From Bacteroidota bacterium (GTDB taxonomy: Bacteria > Bacteroidota > Ignavibacteria > OLB7), in NCBI GenBank assembly GCA_018266795.1, contig JAFDZV010000047.1, positions 54,759 to 118,758 of the forward strand: a stretch of 64,000 bases of DNA, read 5' to 3'. The position numbers were made by a program, and so were the translations under genes. Below the pieces are notes generated by a model that was given only the letters and a program-made list of their open reading frames with translations, made no database searches and was not told where the DNA came from. Positions 7,216-41,127 of this stretch are shown piece by piece (position 1 is the stretch's first letter; every line of letters begins with the position of its first letter).

Positions 7216-7269
7216 GCTCCAGCCCGGTACCTTCCTCTACAACATTGCGAGGAGTGCAGCACGAACGTG

Positions 7270-9294
7270 ATGAAGCAGGATCGATATCGCTTCGCATCCG
7301 GACGTCTCTCGAATGGGACGGATGGGTGTGGAGGCAGCAAGACCCTCGCATGGCGCGGAACCCGGCTCGGGTTCCGCGCCATCGCTGTTCTGTGGAGCGC
7401 TGCGATCGCGGCCACGATTATTCTCCCGGCATGCGCGCGCGCGCAGTCCGGTGTCGAGCTCGGACCAGGCGCTGCGTACGAGTTCGGCCTTCAGCTCGGG
7501 CTGAACAGAGTGCCCGGCGCAGTGGACTGGTGTGCATGCAACGGCCACGGATCCTCCTACAATCATACCGTGTGGGCCGGCGCCTCGCTCCGCGGCCTCT
7601 TCAGCGGCCCATTCGATCTCGCCGAACGCATGAACGTCGGTTACTCCATCGGCCGTTTCACATCCGATATCTACGACGATACCGCCGCGGCCGGGCACCG
7701 GGACAGATTCATCGTCAACGGAAAGGCGTTCTACGTCTCGGAGGATCTTCTCGCGCTCTGGCACGTTCCGGCCGGGCTTGCGCTGGAGTTCGGTCCCTCG
7801 GTCACCTACCGGGTGAACGGCATCTACACGCAGAGCGAACAGATTGTCGAGCCGGCGGACGCAACCTTTCCGGTCTCGGGAACACCGCAGCGCGAGCTGC
7901 GGAGCGGAGACATCCTCGCCGATGCCCGTCTGCAGGTGGCCCTGCTTGCCGGCGCATCGTACGGCATGCCCCTCTCCGGAACGCTCAGGCTGCTGCCGGC
8001 CCTGCATGCCCGCATCAGCCTGGAGGGGCTGCGCCTCGGGCTTGGCCTGCAGGCCGTCTCGCTGAACGCCGGATTCACACTCCTCGTGAATGTGAACGGG
8101 GCAGAGAATGAGCAGATGGATACACACCTGGAGCCCGGGCCTCCGCATCCGGTGCCGTTCAGGGCTTCGGTGGATATCTATGCGTACGACTCTACCGGTC
8201 TTCGCGCCAAGATGTTCACTGTCCGGCGGCGAAACATGCGTCATACACAGCGCGCGCTCCTTCCCTCCGTGATCGCGTTCAGCCGTAACTCTGCTCTCGT
8301 TTCGGAGCGCTACCTGCTTCTGAATCGCAGCCAGGCACAGACCTTCTCCATCGATTCGCTGGTGCGGATTGACCCGTTCCGGATGGTGGGGCAGTCGTTG
8401 AACGTGGTTGGGATGCGCATGCGGAACAACCCGCAGGCTGTGCTGGCGCTTGCCGGCATGCGTGCGCCGGCGGAGGCGCCGGGAATTGCACACGCGCGGG
8501 CGCTCGCCGTTCGCAGCTACCTCGAGGAGACGTGGGGAGTGGATGCGGGGAGAATCGTCATTGGCGGTGATCCGGCCGCCATTGGGCACGACTCGATCGC
8601 CGGCGTTCAGCTCAGTTCTCAATGGCCCGGATTGTTTGCGCCGGTCGAGACGGTATGGGACGAGCAGCAGATCGATGCGCCGCAGATCGGCCTGAAGCCG
8701 CAGTTCACAGGGGGCATGGGCATGCGGTCGTGGGAGATCACCGTTCGACGCAACGGGAACGAAGTCGCGCACGCCTCCTCCGACGGCTCTGTCCGCAGCT
8801 ACGACATGAACCTCGGTCTGGGAGATGAAGGCGCCGCCGTGCCTCCCGCTCCGTTGGTGGCAGTGCTCACGGCGGAGGATTCCAGCGGCGCACTGGTTGC
8901 GGCGCGCGACACCCTTCCGGTACAGGTGGCGCCAACGGCGGCGGTGGATTCACGGCAATGGGCTGCCTACGGCATAACGATTGGCGACTCCGGATCCATG
9001 CGGGATGCGGCGGCCATGCTGGCAGCCATTGAGACGACGGTGCAATCGGGCGATCATGTGCTGATCCAGCATCCTCCCGGCATGGAGACAGCCCGCACCG
9101 GCGCGCAGCTCCTCGCCGATCGCCTTACCGAGCGGGGAGCAATCGTTCGCATCGAACAGGCGGAGGCCGATCGGGTGGACGGGGGGCATCCGGCCGGCGG
9201 GCATCCGGCCGGCGGGCATCCGGCCGGCGGGCATCCGGCCGGTTCCGTTGCGGTGAACATGCTGGCGGTAACGGTTGAGAGCGGGAGGCGGTAG
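7270..9294 (+). CDS. Outer-membrane-associated protein with OmpA-like C-terminal region and a C-terminal (GGHPA)4 repeat
   Basis: The plus-strand ORF has a signal-like segment (AIAVLWSAAIAATIILPACARAQSG) and protein-like composition. The antisense 511-aa ORF is Arg-rich. OmpA-like segment: ALAGMRAPAEAPGIAHARALAVRSYLEETWGVDAGRIVIGG. First ATG at 7270 (the track start at 7267 is GTG). Confidence 0.65.
   Translation: MKQDRYRFASGRLSNGTDGCGGSKTLAWRGTRLGFRAIAVLWSAAIAATIILPACARAQSGVELGPGAAYEFGLQLGLNRVPGAVDWCACNGHGSSYNHTVWAGASLRGLFSGPFDLAERMNVGYSIGRFTSDIYDDTAAAGHRDRFIVNGKAFYVSEDLLALWHVPAGLALEFGPSVTYRVNGIYTQSEQIVEPADATFPVSGTPQRELRSGDILADARLQVALLAGASYGMPLSGTLRLLPALHARISLEGLRLGLGLQAVSLNAGFTLLVNVNGAENEQMDTHLEPGPPHPVPFRASVDIYAYDSTGLRAKMFTVRRRNMRHTQRALLPSVIAFSRNSALVSERYLLLNRSQAQTFSIDSLVRIDPFRMVGQSLNVVGMRMRNNPQAVLALAGMRAPAEAPGIAHARALAVRSYLEETWGVDAGRIVIGGDPAAIGHDSIAGVQLSSQWPGLFAPVETVWDEQQIDAPQIGLKPQFTGGMGMRSWEITVRRNGNEVAHASSDGSVRSYDMNLGLGDEGAAVPPAPLVAVLTAEDSSGALVAARDTLPVQVAPTAAVDSRQWAAYGITIGDSGSMRDAAAMLAAIETTVQSGDHVLIQHPPGMETARTGAQLLADRLTERGAIVRIEQAEADRVDGGHPAGGHPAGGHPAGGHPAGSVAVNMLAVTVESGRR
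9181..9240 (+). repeat. In-frame 15-nt tandem repeat (ggcgggcatccggcc x4) encoding (GGHPA)4
   Basis: Four near-perfect direct copies seen directly in the sequence, at the 3' end of the 7270..9294 CDS. Confidence 0.9.
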
Positions 9295-33458: not shown

Positions 33459-35390
33459 CTATCGCACGCACCGCACGGAAACCCATGAGCTGCCGGTTGG
33501 CGTGGAGAGCCGGCAGGCATAGGCGCCCGGAGGGAGTCCTCTCATATCGAGCGCAGTGCTGTGTGTACCCGCGCCGAACAGATCGCTCGCCACCGTCCTC
33601 ACCTGACGTCCCAACTCATCGAACAGAGCGATGGTGGCCTCGCCGCCGCGTGCAAGCGAGAACGTGATCGTTGCGCTCTGCTGCACCGGGTTCGGCGCGA
33701 TGGAGACCAACCGATCCTCCCCGCCCGGCCCGATGGCGGTCGGCACGGAGGACGGCTCCAGGCTCACCTTGAAGGCGCGGGTTTCGCTGAAGCCGCTCCA
33801 ACCGCTGGAGTTGTGGGCTCGAGCCCGCCAGAAGTATGTATGGCCGTCCTGAAGGCCGGTGCGGAGCGCGAACGTGTCCGTCACGGCGGAGTCCACTGCG
33901 GCGCCCGCGAACGCGGCGTTCTCCGCGAGCGACACTTCGTAGCGGTCGATCGCCGGGCTGGCTGCCCGCCACACCAGCGTTGCCGACGTCTCGGAGATCA
34001 CCTCCGACGGAGCCGGGTACACCAACTGTACCGTTGACGGTGCGGAGAGATCGATCCTGAAGTTCCAGACGTCGCTCCAGGGGCCGCGCTCCGCGTTGCG
34101 TTCGGCGCGCACCCGCCAGTAGTATCGGCCCAGCGGCAGCGGCCCAACCGGGCGCGTGCCAGCGGTGACGGTGGAATCGTCAACCAGGAGTGTTGCGAAG
34201 GTGTTGCTGGTTGAAAGCTGCACGTGATAGATCGGCACCAGCGTATCGCGCTGCCACTGCAGGTTCTGCGAACTGTTCGTGGTGCTGGTGTTGTTGGCAG
34301 GTGCAGCCAGGATGGGCGCCGTGAGTGCCGGCGGCGGCGGCGGCGTTGCCGTATCGCCGTTCAGATGGATGTACCATGGGTTCAGCATCTCATCCACGTA
34401 ATAGCTCGCCAGTGTCGCGTTGCTGTCGATGCGTGCATCGCCCCACGTTCCTCCCCAGTTCGTGTTGATGTAGCAGAAGCCCTTGACCTCCTCGTGTGCG
34501 CTGAGGAACTCGAAGAAGGGGGCAAACCAGTTGTACCAGATGTCGACCCCCTTCGCGGAATCGGGTGTGATGTTCATCCCGGCCGCGGATACCTCTGAGG
34601 CAAGAACCGGCTTGCCGTGCGTGCGCGCCATCTCCAGGAAGCGCTCCACCTTGCCGTGCGTGGTGATGCCGCTTGCGTCGTTCTCCGGAAGCGATATGTC
34701 GAACTCGTCGTTGAAGAAGAGATCGATGCCGAACCAGTCCACATAGCCGTCGCCGGGGTACCAGCGCGAGCCGCTTGCATCAACCTGATCGAAATCGTTG
34801 GGTGCGCCGGAGGAGTAGTAGCACCAGATGAACGCAGCCGAATCCCCCGCGCCGGCAGCGCGGAAGCGGTCCACGATCTTCTTGAAGGCCTTCGGATAGA
34901 TATCGGCATGATAGCCGTTCCATGGCCCGTTGAACTCGAAGCCGGGGCGGATGAAGATCCGCCGCCCGAAGCCCTTGCAGATCGCCGCAAGGCTGTCCAC
35001 CATTGCGTCGTACTGCGTGGTGGTTGCCAGAATGCTGTCGGAGCCGATGGTCCCGTTTGTGATATCGATGCTCAACTCCGGGAACCGACCGGCCGCCCGC
35101 TCCGTTGCAAGCGCGGCGCGAAGTGCGGCATACGGCGGCGCTCCCGAGCCGGGAAGTTCGAAGTACAGCTTCGAGAGATATGGGAGCGTTGTGCTGTCCA
35201 TCACGGCGCGATACGCATCTGCCTCCGCGGCCGATCCGCCAACGCCGTGGTATACGCGGCCCGTATCGGGCTCGAACTTCGCAAGCGCGTGTACCGCGTG
35301 CGCGGAGAGGCTGGGGCGCGTCCGCACGATGTTCTGTGCATGAAGAGTCGAGGCAAGAAAGAGAAGGCAGAGAGCAGCGCGACTGGTCAT
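33459..35390 (-). CDS. Secreted GH26-like glycoside hydrolase (beta-mannanase family) with FN3-like domains and T9SS C-terminal sorting domain
   Basis: Signal peptide MTSRAALCLLFLASTLHAQN at internal ATG. Clan GH-A motif IRPGFEFNGPWNGYH resembles the GH26 acid/base region. Two about 90-aa FN3-like modules (YYWRVRA..., YFWRARA...). C-terminal APNPVQQSATITF...GAYACRLSTPTGSSWVSVRCVR is the T9SS CTD. Confidence 0.8.
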   Translation of the reverse strand: MTSRAALCLLFLASTLHAQNIVRTRPSLSAHAVHALAKFEPDTGRVYHGVGGSAAEADAYRAVMDSTTLPYLSKLYFELPGSGAPPYAALRAALATERAAGRFPELSIDITNGTIGSDSILATTTQYDAMVDSLAAICKGFGRRIFIRPGFEFNGPWNGYHADIYPKAFKKIVDRFRAAGAGDSAAFIWCYYSSGAPNDFDQVDASGSRWYPGDGYVDWFGIDLFFNDEFDISLPENDASGITTHGKVERFLEMARTHGKPVLASEVSAAGMNITPDSAKGVDIWYNWFAPFFEFLSAHEEVKGFCYINTNWGGTWGDARIDSNATLASYYVDEMLNPWYIHLNGDTATPPPPPALTAPILAAPANNTSTTNSSQNLQWQRDTLVPIYHVQLSTSNTFATLLVDDSTVTAGTRPVGPLPLGRYYWRVRAERNAERGPWSDVWNFRIDLSAPSTVQLVYPAPSEVISETSATLVWRAASPAIDRYEVSLAENAAFAGAAVDSAVTDTFALRTGLQDGHTYFWRARAHNSSGWSGFSETRAFKVSLEPSSVPTAIGPGGEDRLVSIAPNPVQQSATITFSLARGGEATIALFDELGRQVRTVASDLFGAGTHSTALDMRGLPPGAYACRLSTPTGSSWVSVRCVR

Positions 35391-35580
35391 GATGCTTCCA
35401 ATGAATCGAGTTGAGCAGAAGAATACCGGATACTGGACGGATATCCACATGGAATGATCCGGATCCGGGAGCAATGGTAACGGGCGTGCGGCGAACTCCG
35501 TAACTTCAGCGCTCGTATTGCCGCCGGGATCGTCGCATTCCCGCATGCCCGGCGGCCCGCTCAACTCTCCGCTTCAATCG

Positions 35581-36834: not shown

Positions 36835-37590
36835 CTATCTGCCCGGCTCGCTTCCAAGAACCCATGCCACGTTCAGGCCGCCGCCGAAGATGAACCCGTT
36901 CCACGAGAGATAGGGCGAGAGATCCGTGAACTCGCGACGGGCATGCACCTCCGGTATCACGGCCAGCCTGTCGCCGATGTGCAATGTATACATGAGCGAA
37001 CCCATTGCTCCAAGCGAGACGTGCGACCGGTCCTTGACTTCGCCTTCACTGGCGGTTATAACCTTTCCGTTGTCCGGATCCGGAGAAGGGAATCGCGTGT
37101 CGGGCGGGGTAACGGTCCGGTGCGTCAGGCGCCCGTTCATTGCAAGGTAGTTGCCCACGGTGGGGCCTGCTCCGATGGCAAACCCTGCAGGGAGCTCGAG
37201 CGCTGCAAGCAGCTCCGCGCGAAGCATCTCGAAGTCCAGATCGTAGGCGATGGTCTGCGTGGCGGTTACTCCGGCACCGTTCTGCAGGACAAGAATATCC
37301 TGACTGAATGCGAACGTGCTCTTCGCCCGGTGCCATCCCACGCGCAGCTGGGTGCCAACAACATCACCCGCAAGGCGGGGTATCCACAGAAGCAGGTGCC
37401 CCTCCGGGTAGCCTGCGTTCGAAAGGATCGGCTGGCCGAAGGGAGGATTGGGATTATCGAATCGCAGCGTTCCGGTCTCGTATCCGCCTCCGGCGCCGAG
37501 AAGCGTCTCGAATTGCTGTGCCGTTCCTCTCTGCGTCAAGGCGGGCAGAAGCGCCAGAACGCAATACCACCATAGTCGCCGGCCAATCAT
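36835..37590 (-). CDS. Secreted/outer-membrane hypothetical protein, tandem paralog A
   Basis: Signal peptide MIGRRLWWYCVLALLPALTQRGTAQQ. Conserved GGGYETGTLR, EFTDLSPxxSWNGFIFGGGLNVA. About 60% identical to paralogs B and C. Confidence 0.7.
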   Translation of the reverse strand: MIGRRLWWYCVLALLPALTQRGTAQQFETLLGAGGGYETGTLRFDNPNPPFGQPILSNAGYPEGHLLLWIPRLAGDVVGTQLRVGWHRAKSTFAFSQDILVLQNGAGVTATQTIAYDLDFEMLRAELLAALELPAGFAIGAGPTVGNYLAMNGRLTHRTVTPPDTRFPSPDPDNGKVITASEGEVKDRSHVSLGAMGSLMYTLHIGDRLAVIPEVHARREFTDLSPYLSWNGFIFGGGLNVAWVLGSEPGR

Positions 37591-37757
37591 GGGCAGCCTT
37601 CACGGTTTGTAGTGAACATTCGAATACGAACATGGACGGAGTGACTCAATCATCCATCCAACAATCAGAAACCTCCGCTGCACACGCCGGAGGCTGCTCT
37701 CCCCGGGAGTGTCTCAAAGACTGAGCGCCACATTCAGGCCGCCGCCGAAGATGAATC
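37517..37757. repeat. About 240-bp near-identical direct repeat (copy 1), covering the 5' coding end and upstream region of paralog A; about 96% identical to 38398..38645
   Basis: Direct comparison of the two blocks (tgccgttcctctctgcgtcaaggcgggcagaagcgccagaacgcaataccaccatagtcgccggccaatcatgggcagccttcacggtttgtagtgaacattcgaatacgaacatggacggagtgactcaatcatccatccaacaatcagaaac...) shows only about 8 mismatches. Confidence 0.85.
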
Positions 37758-38472
37758 CGTTCCATGAAATATGCGGCGAGAGATCCGTGAACTCATGCCT
37801 GGCATGCACTTCCGGAATCACGGCCAGCCGGTCGCCGATGCGGAGCGTGTACACAAGCGAGGCCATCATGCCGATGGTGATGTGTGAACGATCCTGCACG
37901 TCGCCATCGTACAGTATCAGCGTTCGCCCGTTGTTCTCGCTGGGGAGTGCATCCGGATTCACAAACTGCTGGTCCTGCGGCTCGATCAGATTCTCCTTCA
38001 TGCGATCGTTCATCACGAGTTGATCGCTCAGCGTTGGCCCCGCGCCGATTGAGAAACCCGCGGGAAGTTGAAATGTTGCGAGCAGATCTGCCTGAAGCGT
38101 CTGCATGTCGAACGTCTGCTCGAAACTTATGCGCTGCATAACCGGATCGGGCGAACCGGGGAGCAGCACCAAGGTCGCCGGCGGGTAGTTCACGATCGTG
38201 CCCCTTTCCCGATGCCATCCAAGGTGTACCTCGCAGCCCAGAAGGCCGCCGGCCAATCGCGGCACGAACAGAAGCAGATGCCCCTCCGGCCATGTGGTCC
38301 TTGAGTTGCCCGGCTGTACGAACGGAGGATTCGAAATGTCGAGCCGGAGCGTTCCGGTTTCGTAACCGCCTCCGGCGCCGAGAAACATCTCGGCTTGTTG
38401 TGCCGTTCCTCTCTGCGTCAAGGCGGGCAGAAGCGCCAGAACGCAATACCACCATAGTCGCCGGCCAATCAT
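37714..38472 (-). CDS. Secreted/outer-membrane hypothetical protein, tandem paralog B
   Basis: Signal peptide identical to paralog A through residue 26. Otherwise diverged. Same C-terminal NGFIFGGGLNVAL motif. Confidence 0.7.
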   Translation of the reverse strand: MIGRRLWWYCVLALLPALTQRGTAQQAEMFLGAGGGYETGTLRLDISNPPFVQPGNSRTTWPEGHLLLFVPRLAGGLLGCEVHLGWHRERGTIVNYPPATLVLLPGSPDPVMQRISFEQTFDMQTLQADLLATFQLPAGFSIGAGPTLSDQLVMNDRMKENLIEPQDQQFVNPDALPSENNGRTLILYDGDVQDRSHITIGMMASLVYTLRIGDRLAVIPEVHARHEFTDLSPHISWNGFIFGGGLNVALSL

Positions 38473-38645
38473 GGGCAGCCTTCACGGTTTGTAGTGAACA
38501 TTCGAATACGAACATGGACGGAGTGACTCAATCATCCATCCAACAATCAGAAACTTCCGCTGCACACGCCGGAGGCCGCTCTCCTTGGGTGTCTCAAAGA
38601 ATAAGCGCCACATTCAGGCCGCCGCCGAAGATGAGTCCGTTCCGC
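38398..38645. repeat. About 240-bp near-identical direct repeat (copy 2), covering the 5' coding end and upstream region of paralog B
   Basis: See copy 1 (37517..37757). Confidence 0.85.
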
Positions 38646-39355
38646 GAGAGATCGGGTGAGAAATCCGTGAACTCATGCCGTGCATGGGCTTCAGGGATTA
38701 TTGCCAGCCAATCATCGATTCGCCACGTATACATGAGCGATCCCGTCAGGCCGAACGTGACCTTGTTGCGATTGGGCCACTCGCCATTGCGGAGCACCAG
38801 AGTCCGCCCATTGTTCTCCGTCGGGAGGCCGCCTGGGTTGAGGAACCGGGCGTTCTCCGGCTCCACCAGATTCTGCGTCACCTTGCCGTTCATCGTTGTG
38901 TGATAGCTCGCCGTTGGCCCGAGCCCGACGGCAAATCCGGCTGGGAGTTCGTACGTGGCAAGCAGATCCGCTTCCAATGTCTCGAGGTCAACCCTGTGCA
39001 CGATGTTTATCCGTTGTGTCACGCCAACGCCATCCAGCAGGACGACGGTCGCGGGGAAATCATGAACGAAGCTCCCGTCTGTCCGATACCGTCCCACCCG
39101 GAGTTGGGCGCCGAATGATTCTCCAACAATCGATGGCCGCCAGAGGAAGAGACCATAATCCGGCCAATGTGCATGAACCGTGGAGGTGCCGCTGAAGTCA
39201 GTGGTTCCGATCGTCAGATGCAGTTCACCCGTCTCGTATCCGCCGCAAGCACCGGCAATCGTCTCGGAACTCTGTGCGATGGCGGCCGATGCCGCGGCCA
39301 GCGCAATCAAGCAACAGCACTGTGTGCGGATACCATGTGCGATTAGATAACGCAT
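38594..39355 (-). CDS. Secreted/outer-membrane hypothetical protein, tandem paralog C
   Basis: Start at internal ATG (MRYLIAHGIRTQCCCLIALAAASAAIAQS signal). Conserved GGYETGELHL...EFTDFSPDLSRNGLIFGGGLNVALIL. Confidence 0.7.
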   Translation of the reverse strand: MRYLIAHGIRTQCCCLIALAAASAAIAQSSETIAGACGGYETGELHLTIGTTDFSGTSTVHAHWPDYGLFLWRPSIVGESFGAQLRVGRYRTDGSFVHDFPATVVLLDGVGVTQRINIVHRVDLETLEADLLATYELPAGFAVGLGPTASYHTTMNGKVTQNLVEPENARFLNPGGLPTENNGRTLVLRNGEWPNRNKVTFGLTGSLMYTWRIDDWLAIIPEAHARHEFTDFSPDLSRNGLIFGGGLNVALIL

Positions 39356-39510
39356 GTCAAACCAGGAACAATGAAGCTGTGAAGATGATGGTGCCGGCAG
39401 TCTCCGGTCGTTCACCGAATAGTGAATGGGGAGCGCGTTGGTGACACCTGCCGGAGTGAAAGGAATGTGCGGAAAGAGAACGGGCGATGCAAGAGAAGAA
39501 GGGGGCCGGA

Positions 39511-40086
39511 TTACTTGATGTCGTAGTTCAGCAGGGAGAGCGTATCGGCCGATCCCTTGGTCACCACCTGAACCAGACCCACGTTTCGGGCATAGTAGTA
39601 ATCGGATTCGGCGGTTGTTTCGGTGTACGGCGGCGTTGCATACGTGACAACGTGCACGCGAAGCAGGTCGCTGAAGGTCCGGTTCCAGACATAGCGCGAG
39701 TCCAGGTGCTCAACCGTGGAGCATTGATAGTGCAGCGCGCCGGCCGTATCAACATAACTCCATGTTTTGCCGGCTGCCTCATCCAGCAGCGTCCATTCCA
39801 GTGTGGAGTCTATCGTCCTGCGATAGTGCACTCCTGCAACATTCCGCTGCAGCACGTGGCTGGTGACGTTGTTGAAGTAGCTCATCATCACATGCCACGC
39901 CATGCCGTCCACAACGGTATCGGACATGATGTTCGCGGTGAAGATGGAGTGCCCGTCCGTATACAGCCACGCGGAGCCAACCGTTGCCGGGAAGTACGTG
40001 CCGGGCGCGCCGGGCGCTGCCGGATTGCTGCATCCGGCAACGGCAACGAGCGCCGCGAGAAATGCGAGGCTGAACGATGTTCTCAC
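39511..40086 (-). CDS. Hypothetical lipoprotein
   Basis: Signal peptide/lipobox MRTSFSLAFLAALVAVAGC. 191 aa. No family recognised. Confidence 0.65.
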   Translation of the reverse strand: MRTSFSLAFLAALVAVAGCSNPAAPGAPGTYFPATVGSAWLYTDGHSIFTANIMSDTVVDGMAWHVMMSYFNNVTSHVLQRNVAGVHYRRTIDSTLEWTLLDEAAGKTWSYVDTAGALHYQCSTVEHLDSRYVWNRTFSDLLRVHVVTYATPPYTETTAESDYYYARNVGLVQVVTKGSADTLSLLNYDIK

Positions 40087-40110: not shown

Positions 40111-41127
40111 TCAATCGTGCCGCGTCAACACGGTCTTTCTTGTGATGCCACCGGCGGCGCAGGTCATCCGCACGAAGTAGGTGCCGTCTGCAAGGCCGGC
40201 TGTCGGGAAGGTGATATCGTGCGTGCCGCCATCGAACCAGCCCGAGGCGACGGTGCGCACCTCGCGGCCCATGGCGTCGAAGAGTGCAAGCTCGACATCC
40301 GAGGCGAGCGGCAGCCCGATGCGCGCAAGCATGCCGTTGCCGTCACCGATCGTCTCGAGGTCCAGCCGCAGTGCCCCGGCGCCCGGGCTTTTCGGCACGC
40401 TGCTCTGCCCGGCCTGCCATCTGCTGAACAATGTCTGCAGCGAGTCGATCGGCTCACGCTGCGAGTCCGGGCCAAGCGACACATCGATGTTGAGCCAGAG
40501 GTGATCCTGGTCCTGGTCCGTCGGCTGCGCCACACGAAGGAAGGCGGAGTGGGAGGAGCTGTATGGAGCGCAGCGCGTGTCGGCGCCGATCATCTTGGCA
40601 CCCTGGAGCGCGGCCATCAGCTTGTCCGCAAGCGACCCCGGTTGCCGGAGGAACTGTGCCTCCATGGAGTCCAGCACCTGGCGGCCCAGCAGGATGTTCC
40701 CCTGGATGGAATAGGTGGGGCCGGTAATATGTCCCTTGTAGTCGGAGCAGCCGATGCCGGTGTATGCCGCGGTCTTCTGGTCCCCCGCAAGCGTAACCAC
40801 GCCGTACTGCCGAACGCCGGAGTTGCCTTCTGCATCGAACGCCACAAGCGAATCCACGATTGTCTGCGCCGGCAGATGGCGATCCATCAGATCCACGCCA
40901 TGATCCTGGTTCTGCGGGATGTAGCTGGCCTGCGTGTGGATTGCGCCGATGCCGGGGTGCACGTCGCTGATGATGGCGGCATCGAACGGAACGCACGAGG
41001 CGCCGGCACTTCCCACCTGGCCGGTCTCGGGGTCAACCGCCACGATCGAAAACGTATGCTGCGCGCGGAGTGTGCCTGCGGCAAGCATTGCGGCGATGAG
41101 GAGCGGAAGATGTCGCGCTGTGCTCAT
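40111..41127 (-). CDS. DUF1028 (Ntn-hydrolase-like) protein with T9SS C-terminal sorting domain
   Basis: Signal peptide, then TFSIVAVDPETGQVGSAGASCVPFD, the DUF1028 N-terminal-nucleophile-type start. C-terminal about 80 aa (LPLASDVELALFDAMGREVRTVASGWFDGGTHDITF...GTYFVRMTCAAGGITRKTVLTRHD) are the T9SS CTD. Confidence 0.8.
   Translation of the reverse strand: MSTARHLPLLIAAMLAAGTLRAQHTFSIVAVDPETGQVGSAGASCVPFDAAIISDVHPGIGAIHTQASYIPQNQDHGVDLMDRHLPAQTIVDSLVAFDAEGNSGVRQYGVVTLAGDQKTAAYTGIGCSDYKGHITGPTYSIQGNILLGRQVLDSMEAQFLRQPGSLADKLMAALQGAKMIGADTRCAPYSSSHSAFLRVAQPTDQDQDHLWLNIDVSLGPDSQREPIDSLQTLFSRWQAGQSSVPKSPGAGALRLDLETIGDGNGMLARIGLPLASDVELALFDAMGREVRTVASGWFDGGTHDITFPTAGLADGTYFVRMTCAAGGITRKTVLTRHD

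Follow-up and report, generated by a model that had tools for sequence, protein, structure and literature searches.

In Helicobacter pylori, the outer-membrane protein paralogs babA, babB and babC, together with homA and homB, undergo RecA-dependent gene conversion that gives rise to chimeras and to differences in copy number between strains (PMC3960876). The locus described here resembles that system in that it holds paralogs of predicted outer-membrane proteins that are partly homogenised within one genome. The differences are considerable: the H. pylori genes occupy dispersed loci, belong to an unrelated family of much larger adhesins and evolve in concert mainly at their 3' ends, whereas the present copies stand in tandem, share a recent 5' tract that includes non-coding DNA and belong to a free-living organism. 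For the proteins themselves, the closest described families are Pfam PF13568 (OMP_b-brl_2) and PF13505 (OMP_b-brl), with which they share a predicted signal peptide, an all-beta mature domain of ~230 amino acids, a predicted barrel and occurrence in Bacteroidota-type organisms with cargo of the type IX secretion system (T9SS) encoded nearby. They differ from these families in scoring below threshold, in carrying motifs of their own and, for two of the three, in ending in leucine.

The three genes, designated A, B and C, lie on the minus strand of a 64,000-nucleotide stretch of DNA (the window) from a metagenome-assembled genome (the JST22 MAG) of an uncultured, Kapabacteria-like organism, and the original prediction was correct in describing them as three tandem paralogous reading frames. 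In the direction of transcription, C (38594..39355, 253 aa; protein P0001) is the first of the array and the most divergent paralog, B (37714..38472, 252 aa) is the middle copy and A (36835..37590, 251 aa) is the last, with spacers of 121-123 nt between genes. These lengths agree with the family size of about 250 aa that had been proposed, whereas the proposed protein identity of 55-60% overall gives way to measured values of 61% for A-B, 46% for A-C and 49% for B-C. Each gene possesses its own start codon, predicted signal peptide and upstream region. The start of C is placed at the ATG at 39355, in agreement with the NCBI start and with homologs, although the mechanical open reading frame reaches a GTG at 39415; gene A corresponds to JST22_19870, which NCBI annotates with a shorter start. 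The G+C content of the three genes (0.59-0.62) is close to that of the window (0.62) and thus gives no hint of foreign origin, and a plasmid search returned no match and hence no sign of mobility. Nearby, a further gene encodes a GH26 protein that carries a T9SS sorting tail.

An AlphaFold model of the gene B product (pLDDT 88.1, pTM 0.76) has a signal helix spanning residues 2-22 and, after it, an all-beta fold in which 9-10 long strands are predicted. When the model was compared against the PDB with Foldseek, the top ~40 matches were all outer-membrane barrels (probability 1.0, E 1e-5 to 1e-4), the best of them being the OmpA transmembrane domain (1bxw), OmpX (1qj9), OmpT/Pla (1i78, 2x55), OpcA (1k24) and the Legionella Dot/Icm porin III (9nh2), albeit with modest TM-scores of just 0.3-0.55 and sequence identities of 6-12%. 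Profile searching against PDB sequences gave no match. As modelled, A, B and C probably fall among the small beta-barrels typified by OmpA, OmpX and OmpT, with the outer membrane as their presumptive location. Taken with the Pfam matches of the wider family, this outcome answers the beta-barrel check in the affirmative and refines the earlier description of the proteins as "secreted". Inspection of the N-termini by eye reveals a basic n-region and a hydrophobic core, followed by G-T-A|Q in A and B, A-I-A|Q in C and G-A-A|Q in the protein of a relative considered below; glutamine at +1 of this site is consistent with the "Q-rule" of Bacteroidota. At the opposite end, B terminates in ...NVALSL and C in ...NVALIL, A continues from ...NVAW into VLGSEPGR, and the last residues of distant relatives are ...RRAF or ...RHAF. 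B and C, ending in leucine, are therefore without the C-terminal aromatic residue usual in outer-membrane proteins, a beta-signal that is frequent in such proteins but not obligatory.

Assignment to a named family is less direct. A Pfam scan of A, B and C found nothing at threshold, with A reaching 14.9 bits against a cut-off of 28.7 (PF13505) and B and C unmatched, and an NCBIfam scan of the three found no family at E <= 1. Of 77 members of the wider family, 24 match PF13568 and 14 PF13505 at E <= 0.01, and one member, P0010, exceeds the gathering score (28.7 vs 27). The proposed HMM search thus yielded no family for A, B and C themselves while recovering PF13568 among their kin, and because the three fall below threshold where relatives match, membership of PF13568/PF13505 is transitive and distant only. 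The proteins are a small uncurated branch near OMP_b-brl_2. Neither the OmpA C-terminal domain (PF00691) nor the NCBIfam and Pfam models for T9SS outer-membrane components (PorP/SprF, PorT and PorV types) matched A, B or C. A set of 1.84 billion proteins contains 328 cluster representatives of the family, and wherever a source names one it is labelled hypothetical. Its characteristic motifs are GGGYETG, placed where the mature protein starts, and EFTDLSP...GGGLNVA, along with E-P-x-[DN]-x-[RQ]-F ... [ED]-N-G-[RK], of which B, C and the relative carry the longer version N-P-x-x-L-P-[ST]-E-N-N-G-R. The motifs GGGYETG, EFTDLSP and GGGLNVAL, proposed as conserved, do exist but vary among the copies: C reads GACGGYETG and EFTDFSP, and A ends its version as GGGLNVAW.

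In single-sequence phmmer searches, the closest kin outside the subfamily include longer and multi-barrel proteins beside a few stand-alone barrels. P0021, P0018 and a reading frame of the window itself (7267..9294) consist of a barrel and a C-terminal region of ~400 aa with a weak OmpA-like segment, for which the OmpA-domain matches are sub-threshold, and P0009 and P0015 carry two or three barrels per protein. The longer relatives have in common with A, B and C a G-x-G-Y-E-x-G start and a P-E...R...F/L...GGG end, and the tail of A, AWVLGSEPGR, which is presumably of the ancestral type, resembles their post-barrel linker (e.g., VWQLGSSGPG in P0018). In contrast to these proteins, A, B and C are stand-alone barrels with no C-terminal region, encoded by separate genes with their own stops and with the spacers given above.

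The most conspicuous feature of the array is an exact repeat of 155 nt, established by string identity, of which one copy (37517..37671, minus strand) comprises 81 nt upstream of A and the first 24-25 codons of A, and the other (38399..38553, minus strand) the corresponding 81 nt and first 24-25 codons of B. Repeat finding extends this tract to 37429..37713 on the A side and 38311..38595 on the B side (both minus strand), two intervals of 92% identity that take in the entire B-to-A spacer with ~54 codons of A and the entire C-to-B spacer with ~54 codons of B, respectively. The spacers (37591-37713 and 38473-38593) are 95% identical and the first 26 codons 98.7% identical in DNA, falling to 73% over codons 27-60 and 63% in A-B DNA outside the block; mismatch positions and sliding identity indicate that the tract tails off gradually on its 3' side. 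At a background identity of 63%, the expectation for a 155-nt exact run is ~7e-29, and the longest A-B concordant run, 79 variable sites, was reached in 0 of 20000 shuffles in a permutation test. The block is absent from C and from the relative's gene. Self-comparison of the region, suggested as a check, therefore reveals a block of elevated identity in place of uniform divergence. Its predicted limits need adjustment: the identity of about 96% claimed for 37517..37757 against 38398..38645 is reproduced (96.3%) against 38399..38637, but the second interval had been drawn ~8 nt too long, at which it gives 92.8%, and the ~150 bp said to lie upstream exceeds the 121-123 nt of the spacer.

Searches turned up a single close relative, a genome of Candidatus Kapaibacterium, and the subfamily is thereby known from 2 genomes, both of them MAGs. 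Besides the three proteins of the window, word-indexed homolog searches returned just this relative and one or two distant proteins; a scan of GTDB representative genomes found the same relative and no other, and two metagenome scans, by protein patterns and by an EFTD...GGGLNVA DNA pattern, gave no match. The distant relatives (L003-L005) are single-copy genes in unrelated contexts, and comparison with them brought no conserved operon partner to light. In the Kapaibacterium, the syntenic locus encodes PtsI, a DUF1028 protein, a 191-aa product, one barrel, a DUF3179 protein and a GH26 protein bearing a T9SS sorting tail (L001); its flanks are ~90% identical to those in the window, with one barrel gene vs three. 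Both edges of the array can be followed into it: the 3' ~215 nt of A, together with the flank downstream, align without a break to the relative's locus at ~90% identity, and the distal part of the region upstream of C has its ortholog in the DNA upstream of the single gene. At informative sites, that gene is a mosaic of a C-like upstream region, a B-like body and an A-like tail. Moreover, dS between the body of B and the relative's gene (0.31-0.41) is at the level of flanking orthologs (0.29-0.36), from which it follows that the triplication is older than the species split. On this reading, drawn from two MAGs, the array of the relative would have collapsed by recombination, a process of the same kind in the sister species having left a single chimera with C upstream, B body and A tail.

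Gene B is itself a mosaic at informative sites, with an A-like 5' end, a body like the relative's gene and a C-like tail. Between A and B, dS rises from 0.05 over the first 32 aligned codon columns to values between 1.1 and saturation (infinity) in the gene body, and is 0.5 at the conserved 3' end. The marks of gene conversion are thus present in a block longer than divergence predicts, in identity at synonymous and non-coding sites, and in nearest relatives that change from segment to segment; as the identity spans synonymous and non-coding positions, constraint at the protein level is no explanation. The patchy identity had been attributed either to gene conversion of promoter and signal-peptide regions or to recent duplication with rapid divergence of the mature proteins. 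Of these the former accounts for the pattern best, since spacer and signal-peptide codons are homogenised (dS 0.05 vs at least 1.1 in the body): judging from sequence comparison, the array probably comprises three old tandem paralogs and a recent A-B conversion tract across spacer and signal-peptide codons, a reading to which we assign a probability of roughly 80%. A recent tandem duplication of A and B, with the 5' block as the part yet to diverge, would suit the tandem layout in units of ~880 nt and a nonsynonymous rate above that of neighbouring genes (dN/dS 0.35 vs ~0.1). It is scarcely credible, however, given a body dS of 1.1 to infinity beside 0.05 at the start, a B body that is orthologous at flank-level dS and so places the A/B split before the species split, and the inability of protein-level selection to remove synonymous identity.

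Gene conversion between A and B would have proceeded by non-reciprocal homologous recombination, the transferred tract comprising the spacer (with a terminator-like hairpin, a presumed promoter and 5'UTR) and the signal-peptide codons, and being gone by about codon 40-55. A was probably the donor and B the recipient, because the 5' end of B is unlike that of its ortholog in the relative while the body is alike; this direction assumes that the relative's 5' end is orthologous to the original 5' end of B. The outcome would be two genes with a common upstream sequence and signal peptide and distinct mature barrels. The 155-nt direct repeats that flank B would also leave the array liable to RecA-type deletion or amplification. 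Exchange of start regions by ordinary recombination is a familiar route for such gene families and a textbook process.

Within the converted spacer, the terminator-like hairpin (37660..37693, minus strand), CCTCCG-N10-CGGAGG followed by TTTCTGATTGTT, lies downstream of B and appears in the minimum free energy fold, and a second copy (38542-38575, minus strand) with one stem mismatch lies downstream of C. A terminator consensus scan did not list the spacer hairpin, the stability of the spacer folds against shuffles was not significant (z about -1.5) and a sigma-70 promoter scan found no site; promoter and terminator roles are consequently putative. An Rfam scan of the region was likewise empty, so the conserved spacer corresponds to no known RNA element. 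At the 3' ends of the genes, the similarity noted earlier in the coding end of the preceding copy is borne out by a tail common to B (37714..37757, minus strand) and C (38594-38637), which is 93% identical and includes a 31-nt exact run (permutation p = 0.008). The TGA stop of B and C stands at the position of a glycine codon (GGA/GGG) in A and in the relative. We considered this tail (ALSL or ALIL before the stop) as a duplication junction and dropped the idea, as the alignments point to a GGA-to-TGA stop; with low confidence, such a stop may lie inside A-homologous tail sequence, followed by weak similarity for ~40 nt.

Since the source is a metagenome-assembled genome, merged strain variants or a mis-resolved repeat might have produced the repeat or the order of three copies. 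The exact 155-nt repeat is of about the length that troubles short-read assemblers, and look-ups of the three exact proteins among public assemblies gave no independent record. Against this, the independently assembled relative holds pieces of all three genes, from C upstream through the B body to the A tail, in the order of the array, and the copies are 40-50% apart in DNA, beyond strain variation given 90% flank identity between species. Assembly-graph reasoning leaves C-R-B-R-A as the sole linear path through all segments; the gradual decay of identity at the 3' edge of the tract fits conversion, unlike a chimeric join, and the three open reading frames are intact with an overall dN/dS below 1. 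An artefact of this kind is very unlikely.

Whether conversion serves surface variation bears on the original description of the locus as a diversifying surface-protein signature. For B against its ortholog, dN/dS is 0.35, compared with 0.06-0.12 in neighbouring genes, and changes cluster in three places, namely the signal peptide, the segment between predicted strands 1 and 2, and the region of strands 3 to 4; between paralogs, overall dN/dS is 0.34-0.37. No mature-protein segment exceeds 1, and values near 1 (0.95-1.10) are confined to the A-C and B-C comparisons, in the codons of the signal peptide. The signature is accordingly weakly supported. Programmed variation, with the copies as alternative cassettes and their conserved ends as recombination sites for switching or copy number in the evasion of phages or predators, would accord with conserved ends around a variable middle, with independent signs of conversion at either end of the genes, 5' between A and B and 3' between B and C (p = 0.008), with array collapse in the relative, with the raised dN/dS and low identity between the first two predicted strands, and with the analogy to the bab and hom paralogs of H. 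pylori (PMC3960876). It is nevertheless unlikely, as every copy carries its own start, predicted signal peptide and upstream region, leaving no silent cassette, dN/dS is below 1 in all mature-protein segments, and the locus has neither simple-sequence tracts nor convincing inverted repeats. Searches there found no tandem or simple repeats and two weak inverted repeats (71-77% complementarity), and the hallmarks of opa, pilE/pilS and invertible-promoter cassettes are absent from it. A looser form of the idea, by analogy, takes the locus to be a surface-variation array that is driven by recombination, in a Kapabacterium living free in soil or water; the conserved ends would act as crossover sites for shuffling, deleting or amplifying barrel variants, with phages or predators exerting pressure on their exposed loops. 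We regard this as rather doubtful. Were it true, B would be turned by the 155-nt repeats into a module for high-frequency on/off or copy-number change, and the bab/opa-style strategy of host-adapted pathogens would extend to environmental Bacteroidota and to an undescribed outer-membrane protein family.

As it stands, gene conversion in the A/B/C array is a known process in an unnamed family, and its main present use is in annotation: the NCBI starts of A and B truncate the signal peptide, and a family of small outer-membrane barrels that has no Pfam or NCBIfam model is flagged as meriting one. The locus further provides a clean, dated case of partial gene conversion and array collapse among tandem outer-membrane protein genes in an uncultured Bacteroidota lineage. 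Should the copies turn out to be exposed and to vary within populations, members of the family could serve as markers of phage-receptor or surface-variation loci among Kapabacteria.

Genes A (36835..37590; 251 aa), B (37714..38472; 252 aa) and C (38594..39355; 253 aa) are ORFs arranged in tandem on the minus strand, transcribed in the order C, B, A and separated by spacers of 121 and 123 nt. Their codon-position GC of approximately 0.64/0.47/0.69 is consistent with minus-strand coding, and the plus-strand ORFs that overlap them are an ordinary side effect of 62% G+C. At the protein level, A and B are 61% identical, A and C 46%, and B and C 49%. The genes correspond to NCBI JST22_19870/75/80 (source “Bacteroidetes bacterium” MAG), where the annotated starts of A (an internal codon; 234 aa) and B (Met29; 224 aa) both forfeit the predicted signal peptide. 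Conservation supports the longer ATG starts of A and B, both in C and in the single close relative protein that emerged from a word-indexed protein search together with separate scans of representative GTDB genomes and of JGI metagenomes. This protein belongs to a Candidatus Kapaibacterium MAG (GCA_035549015.1). The mechanical ORF of C extends to a GTG at 39415.

The original prediction of a block of high identity shared by the 5′ regions of A and B was confirmed with small corrections only, the block reaching 96.3% identity when its second end is placed at 38637. Repeat finding aligned 37429-37713 with 38311-38595 at 92% identity, and direct comparison revealed an exact repeat of 155 nt within them (37517-37671 and 38399-38553). 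Identity between A and B is 95% in the spacers and 98.7% in the first 26 codons, then 73% in codons 27-60 and 63% in the remainder of the gene; the first mismatch lies at 37516, and mismatch density rises progressively deeper into the gene. In a variable-site permutation test, the longest concordant run between A and B spanned 79 variable sites, a length matched in none of 20000 permutations. B and C share a shorter run at the 3′ tail (p = 0.008), and A and C gave no concordant-run signal.

By Nei-Gojobori estimation, dS between A and B is 0.05 over the first 32 aligned codon columns and rises to 0.5 over columns 32-60; the body ranges from 1.1 to saturation, and the conserved C-terminal fifth returns to 0.5. 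The overall dN/dS of this pair is 0.34. For A-C and B-C, dS is saturated over most of the body (approximately 1.2-1.3 overall). Recent duplication, initially offered as the alternative to gene conversion, was rejected because saturated synonymous sites adjoin 155 identical bases. The same juxtaposition marks the block as a tract of recent recombination superimposed on older paralogs. Gene conversion is supported by both the dS contrast and the permutation run. Both genomes are MAGs; the repeat and gene order are known from assembly alone, and a look-up of the A, B and C proteins returned no record in any independent assembly. That the arrangement is an assembly artefact is argued against by the independently assembled relative, in which parts of A, B and C all occur and keep their order, by a divergence between copies that far exceeds strain level, and by the gradual decay of identity at the tract edge.

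The relative's locus is syntenic with the window, encoding PtsI, a DUF1028 protein, a 191-aa protein, one barrel protein, a DUF3179 protein and a GH26 protein, the last of these carrying a type IX secretion (T9SS) sorting tail; the flanks share approximately 90% DNA identity with the window. In the window, the 191-aa gene (39511..40086, minus) lies immediately upstream of C; its product starts MRTSFSLAFLAALVAVAGCSNP, a lipoprotein-type signal with a lipobox Cys, is 92% conserved with the relative and is without a Pfam family. The GH26/fn3 protein (33459..35564, minus) has a C-terminal Por_Secre_tail match of 25.7 bits, slightly below cut-off, and the DUF1028 protein (40111..41127, minus) has a C-terminus that is T9SS-tail-like by eye, with a weak FlgD_ig match. 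Such tail-like segments on two neighbors are consistent with a Bacteroidota-type secretion system here.

Flanking orthologs have dS of 0.29-0.36 and dN/dS of 0.06-0.12. The body of B compared with the relative's gene has dS of 0.31-0.41 and dN/dS of 0.23-0.60 (0.50 and 0.35 for the whole gene), a flank-level dS that marks the two as true orthologs. The split among A, B and C is therefore older, by several-fold, than the divergence of the two species. Informative sites reveal the relative's gene as a mosaic, with C-type distal upstream sequence, a B-type body, and an A-type tail and downstream flank; B itself has an A-like 5′ end, a body like that of the relative, and a C-like final ~45-100 nt. 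The simplest history we infer would begin with a C-B-A array in the ancestor, from which the relative would have lost copies by two recombinational deletions, leaving one chimera. Much later, in the window lineage, conversion would have copied the spacer and signal-peptide region of A over those of B, a direction suggested by the fact that the 5′ end of B no longer resembles that of its ortholog. Alternatively, the bodies of A and C may have been acquired by transfer, though their G+C is ordinary.

At the 3′ end, B and C have a TGA stop at the position where A and the relative continue through a Gly codon (GGA/GGG) into six further codons (SEPGR; 36835..36862 vs. 37714..37730 and 38594..38610, minus). 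This stop looks like a one-base change inside a homologous tail rather than a duplication junction, and past it similarity is weak. Each spacer then carries a minus-strand hairpin, CCTCCG-N10-CGGAGG followed by a T-rich run at 37660-37693 and the same type with one stem mismatch at 38542-38575, with the ATG approximately 80 nt beyond and GAAGG ahead of it. It is plausible that A, B and C are each transcribed independently. The spacers have no sigma-70 consensus site (a scan that does not cover Bacteroidota promoters), no significant fold stability and no Rfam match.

No Pfam or NCBIfam model reaches threshold for A, B or C. An exhaustive HMMER search of 1.84 billion proteins returned 328 cluster representatives at E ≤ 1e-3, the majority 250-300 aa and some 600-680 aa, with a few carrying the domain in two or three copies; all ten members looked up are “hypothetical protein” or unnamed. 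At E ≤ 0.01, PF13568 (OMP_b-brl_2) accounts for 24 of the 77 aligned members and PF13505 for 14, and one family member scores above the gathering cut-off. An AlphaFold2 model of B built from the family alignment (pLDDT 88.1, pTM 0.76) has an N-terminal helix (residues 2-22), after which long beta strands run up to the C-terminus. Its top Foldseek PDB matches are exclusively outer-membrane barrels (probability 1.0, TM 0.3-0.55), including OmpA, OmpX, OmpT/Pla, OpcA, NspA, Ail, autotransporter barrels and Legionella porins. The N-termini of A, B, C and the relative read as putative Sec signal peptides cut before Gln (GTA|Q, AIA|Q, GAA|Q). We conclude that these are probably small outer-membrane beta-barrel proteins, from a branch of a known superfamily that is still uncurated.

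Beyond the subfamily, single-sequence phmmer ranks closest mainly the barrel domains found in long and multi-barrel proteins, along with a small number of stand-alone barrels. A distant paralog within the window, the 675-aa ORF at 7267..9294 (plus; tblastn vs. B, E = 8e-7), is the long form of the family, homologous to the family protein P0021 across ~570 residues (E = 4e-32). Its N-terminal barrel is followed by a C-terminal region of ~400 aa with an OmpA-like ARALAVRSYLEETWG segment and four GGHPA repeats near the end, and the protein has no Pfam match. Two further members from JGI metagenomes, P0009 (911 aa) and P0015 (1138 aa), have two or three barrel domains per polypeptide and then a long C-terminal region, suggesting that tandem duplication of the barrel is recurrent in the family and at times fused; gene-calling across tandem genes is a possible alternative.

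The proposal that this is a diversifying surface family fared less clearly. Relative to its ortholog, B has a dN 4-9 times that of neighboring genes at equal dS, and is least conserved in the signal peptide, between predicted strands 1 and 2 (33% identity) and in the region of strands 3 to 4 (60-72%); conservation reaches 87-100% in strand 5 and in the C-terminal strands. The raised dN and variable segments stand in its favor, and against it dN/dS exceeds 1 in no mature-protein segment, reaching ~1 only in signal-peptide codons of A-C and B-C. The locus has no simple-sequence tracts, silent cassettes or convincing inverted repeats. Taken together, these features are compatible with exposed parts that may be evolving under relaxed or mildly diversifying selection.

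The array is not novel in kind, as its predicted barrels fall in a known outer-membrane superfamily and conversion between tandem gene copies is likewise a known process. Concerted evolution and chimera formation, the processes it shares, are documented for the bab and hom outer-membrane protein paralogs of H. pylori (PMC3960876), from which it differs in that its copies are tandem, its tract is 5′ and includes non-coding DNA, and its organism is environmental.
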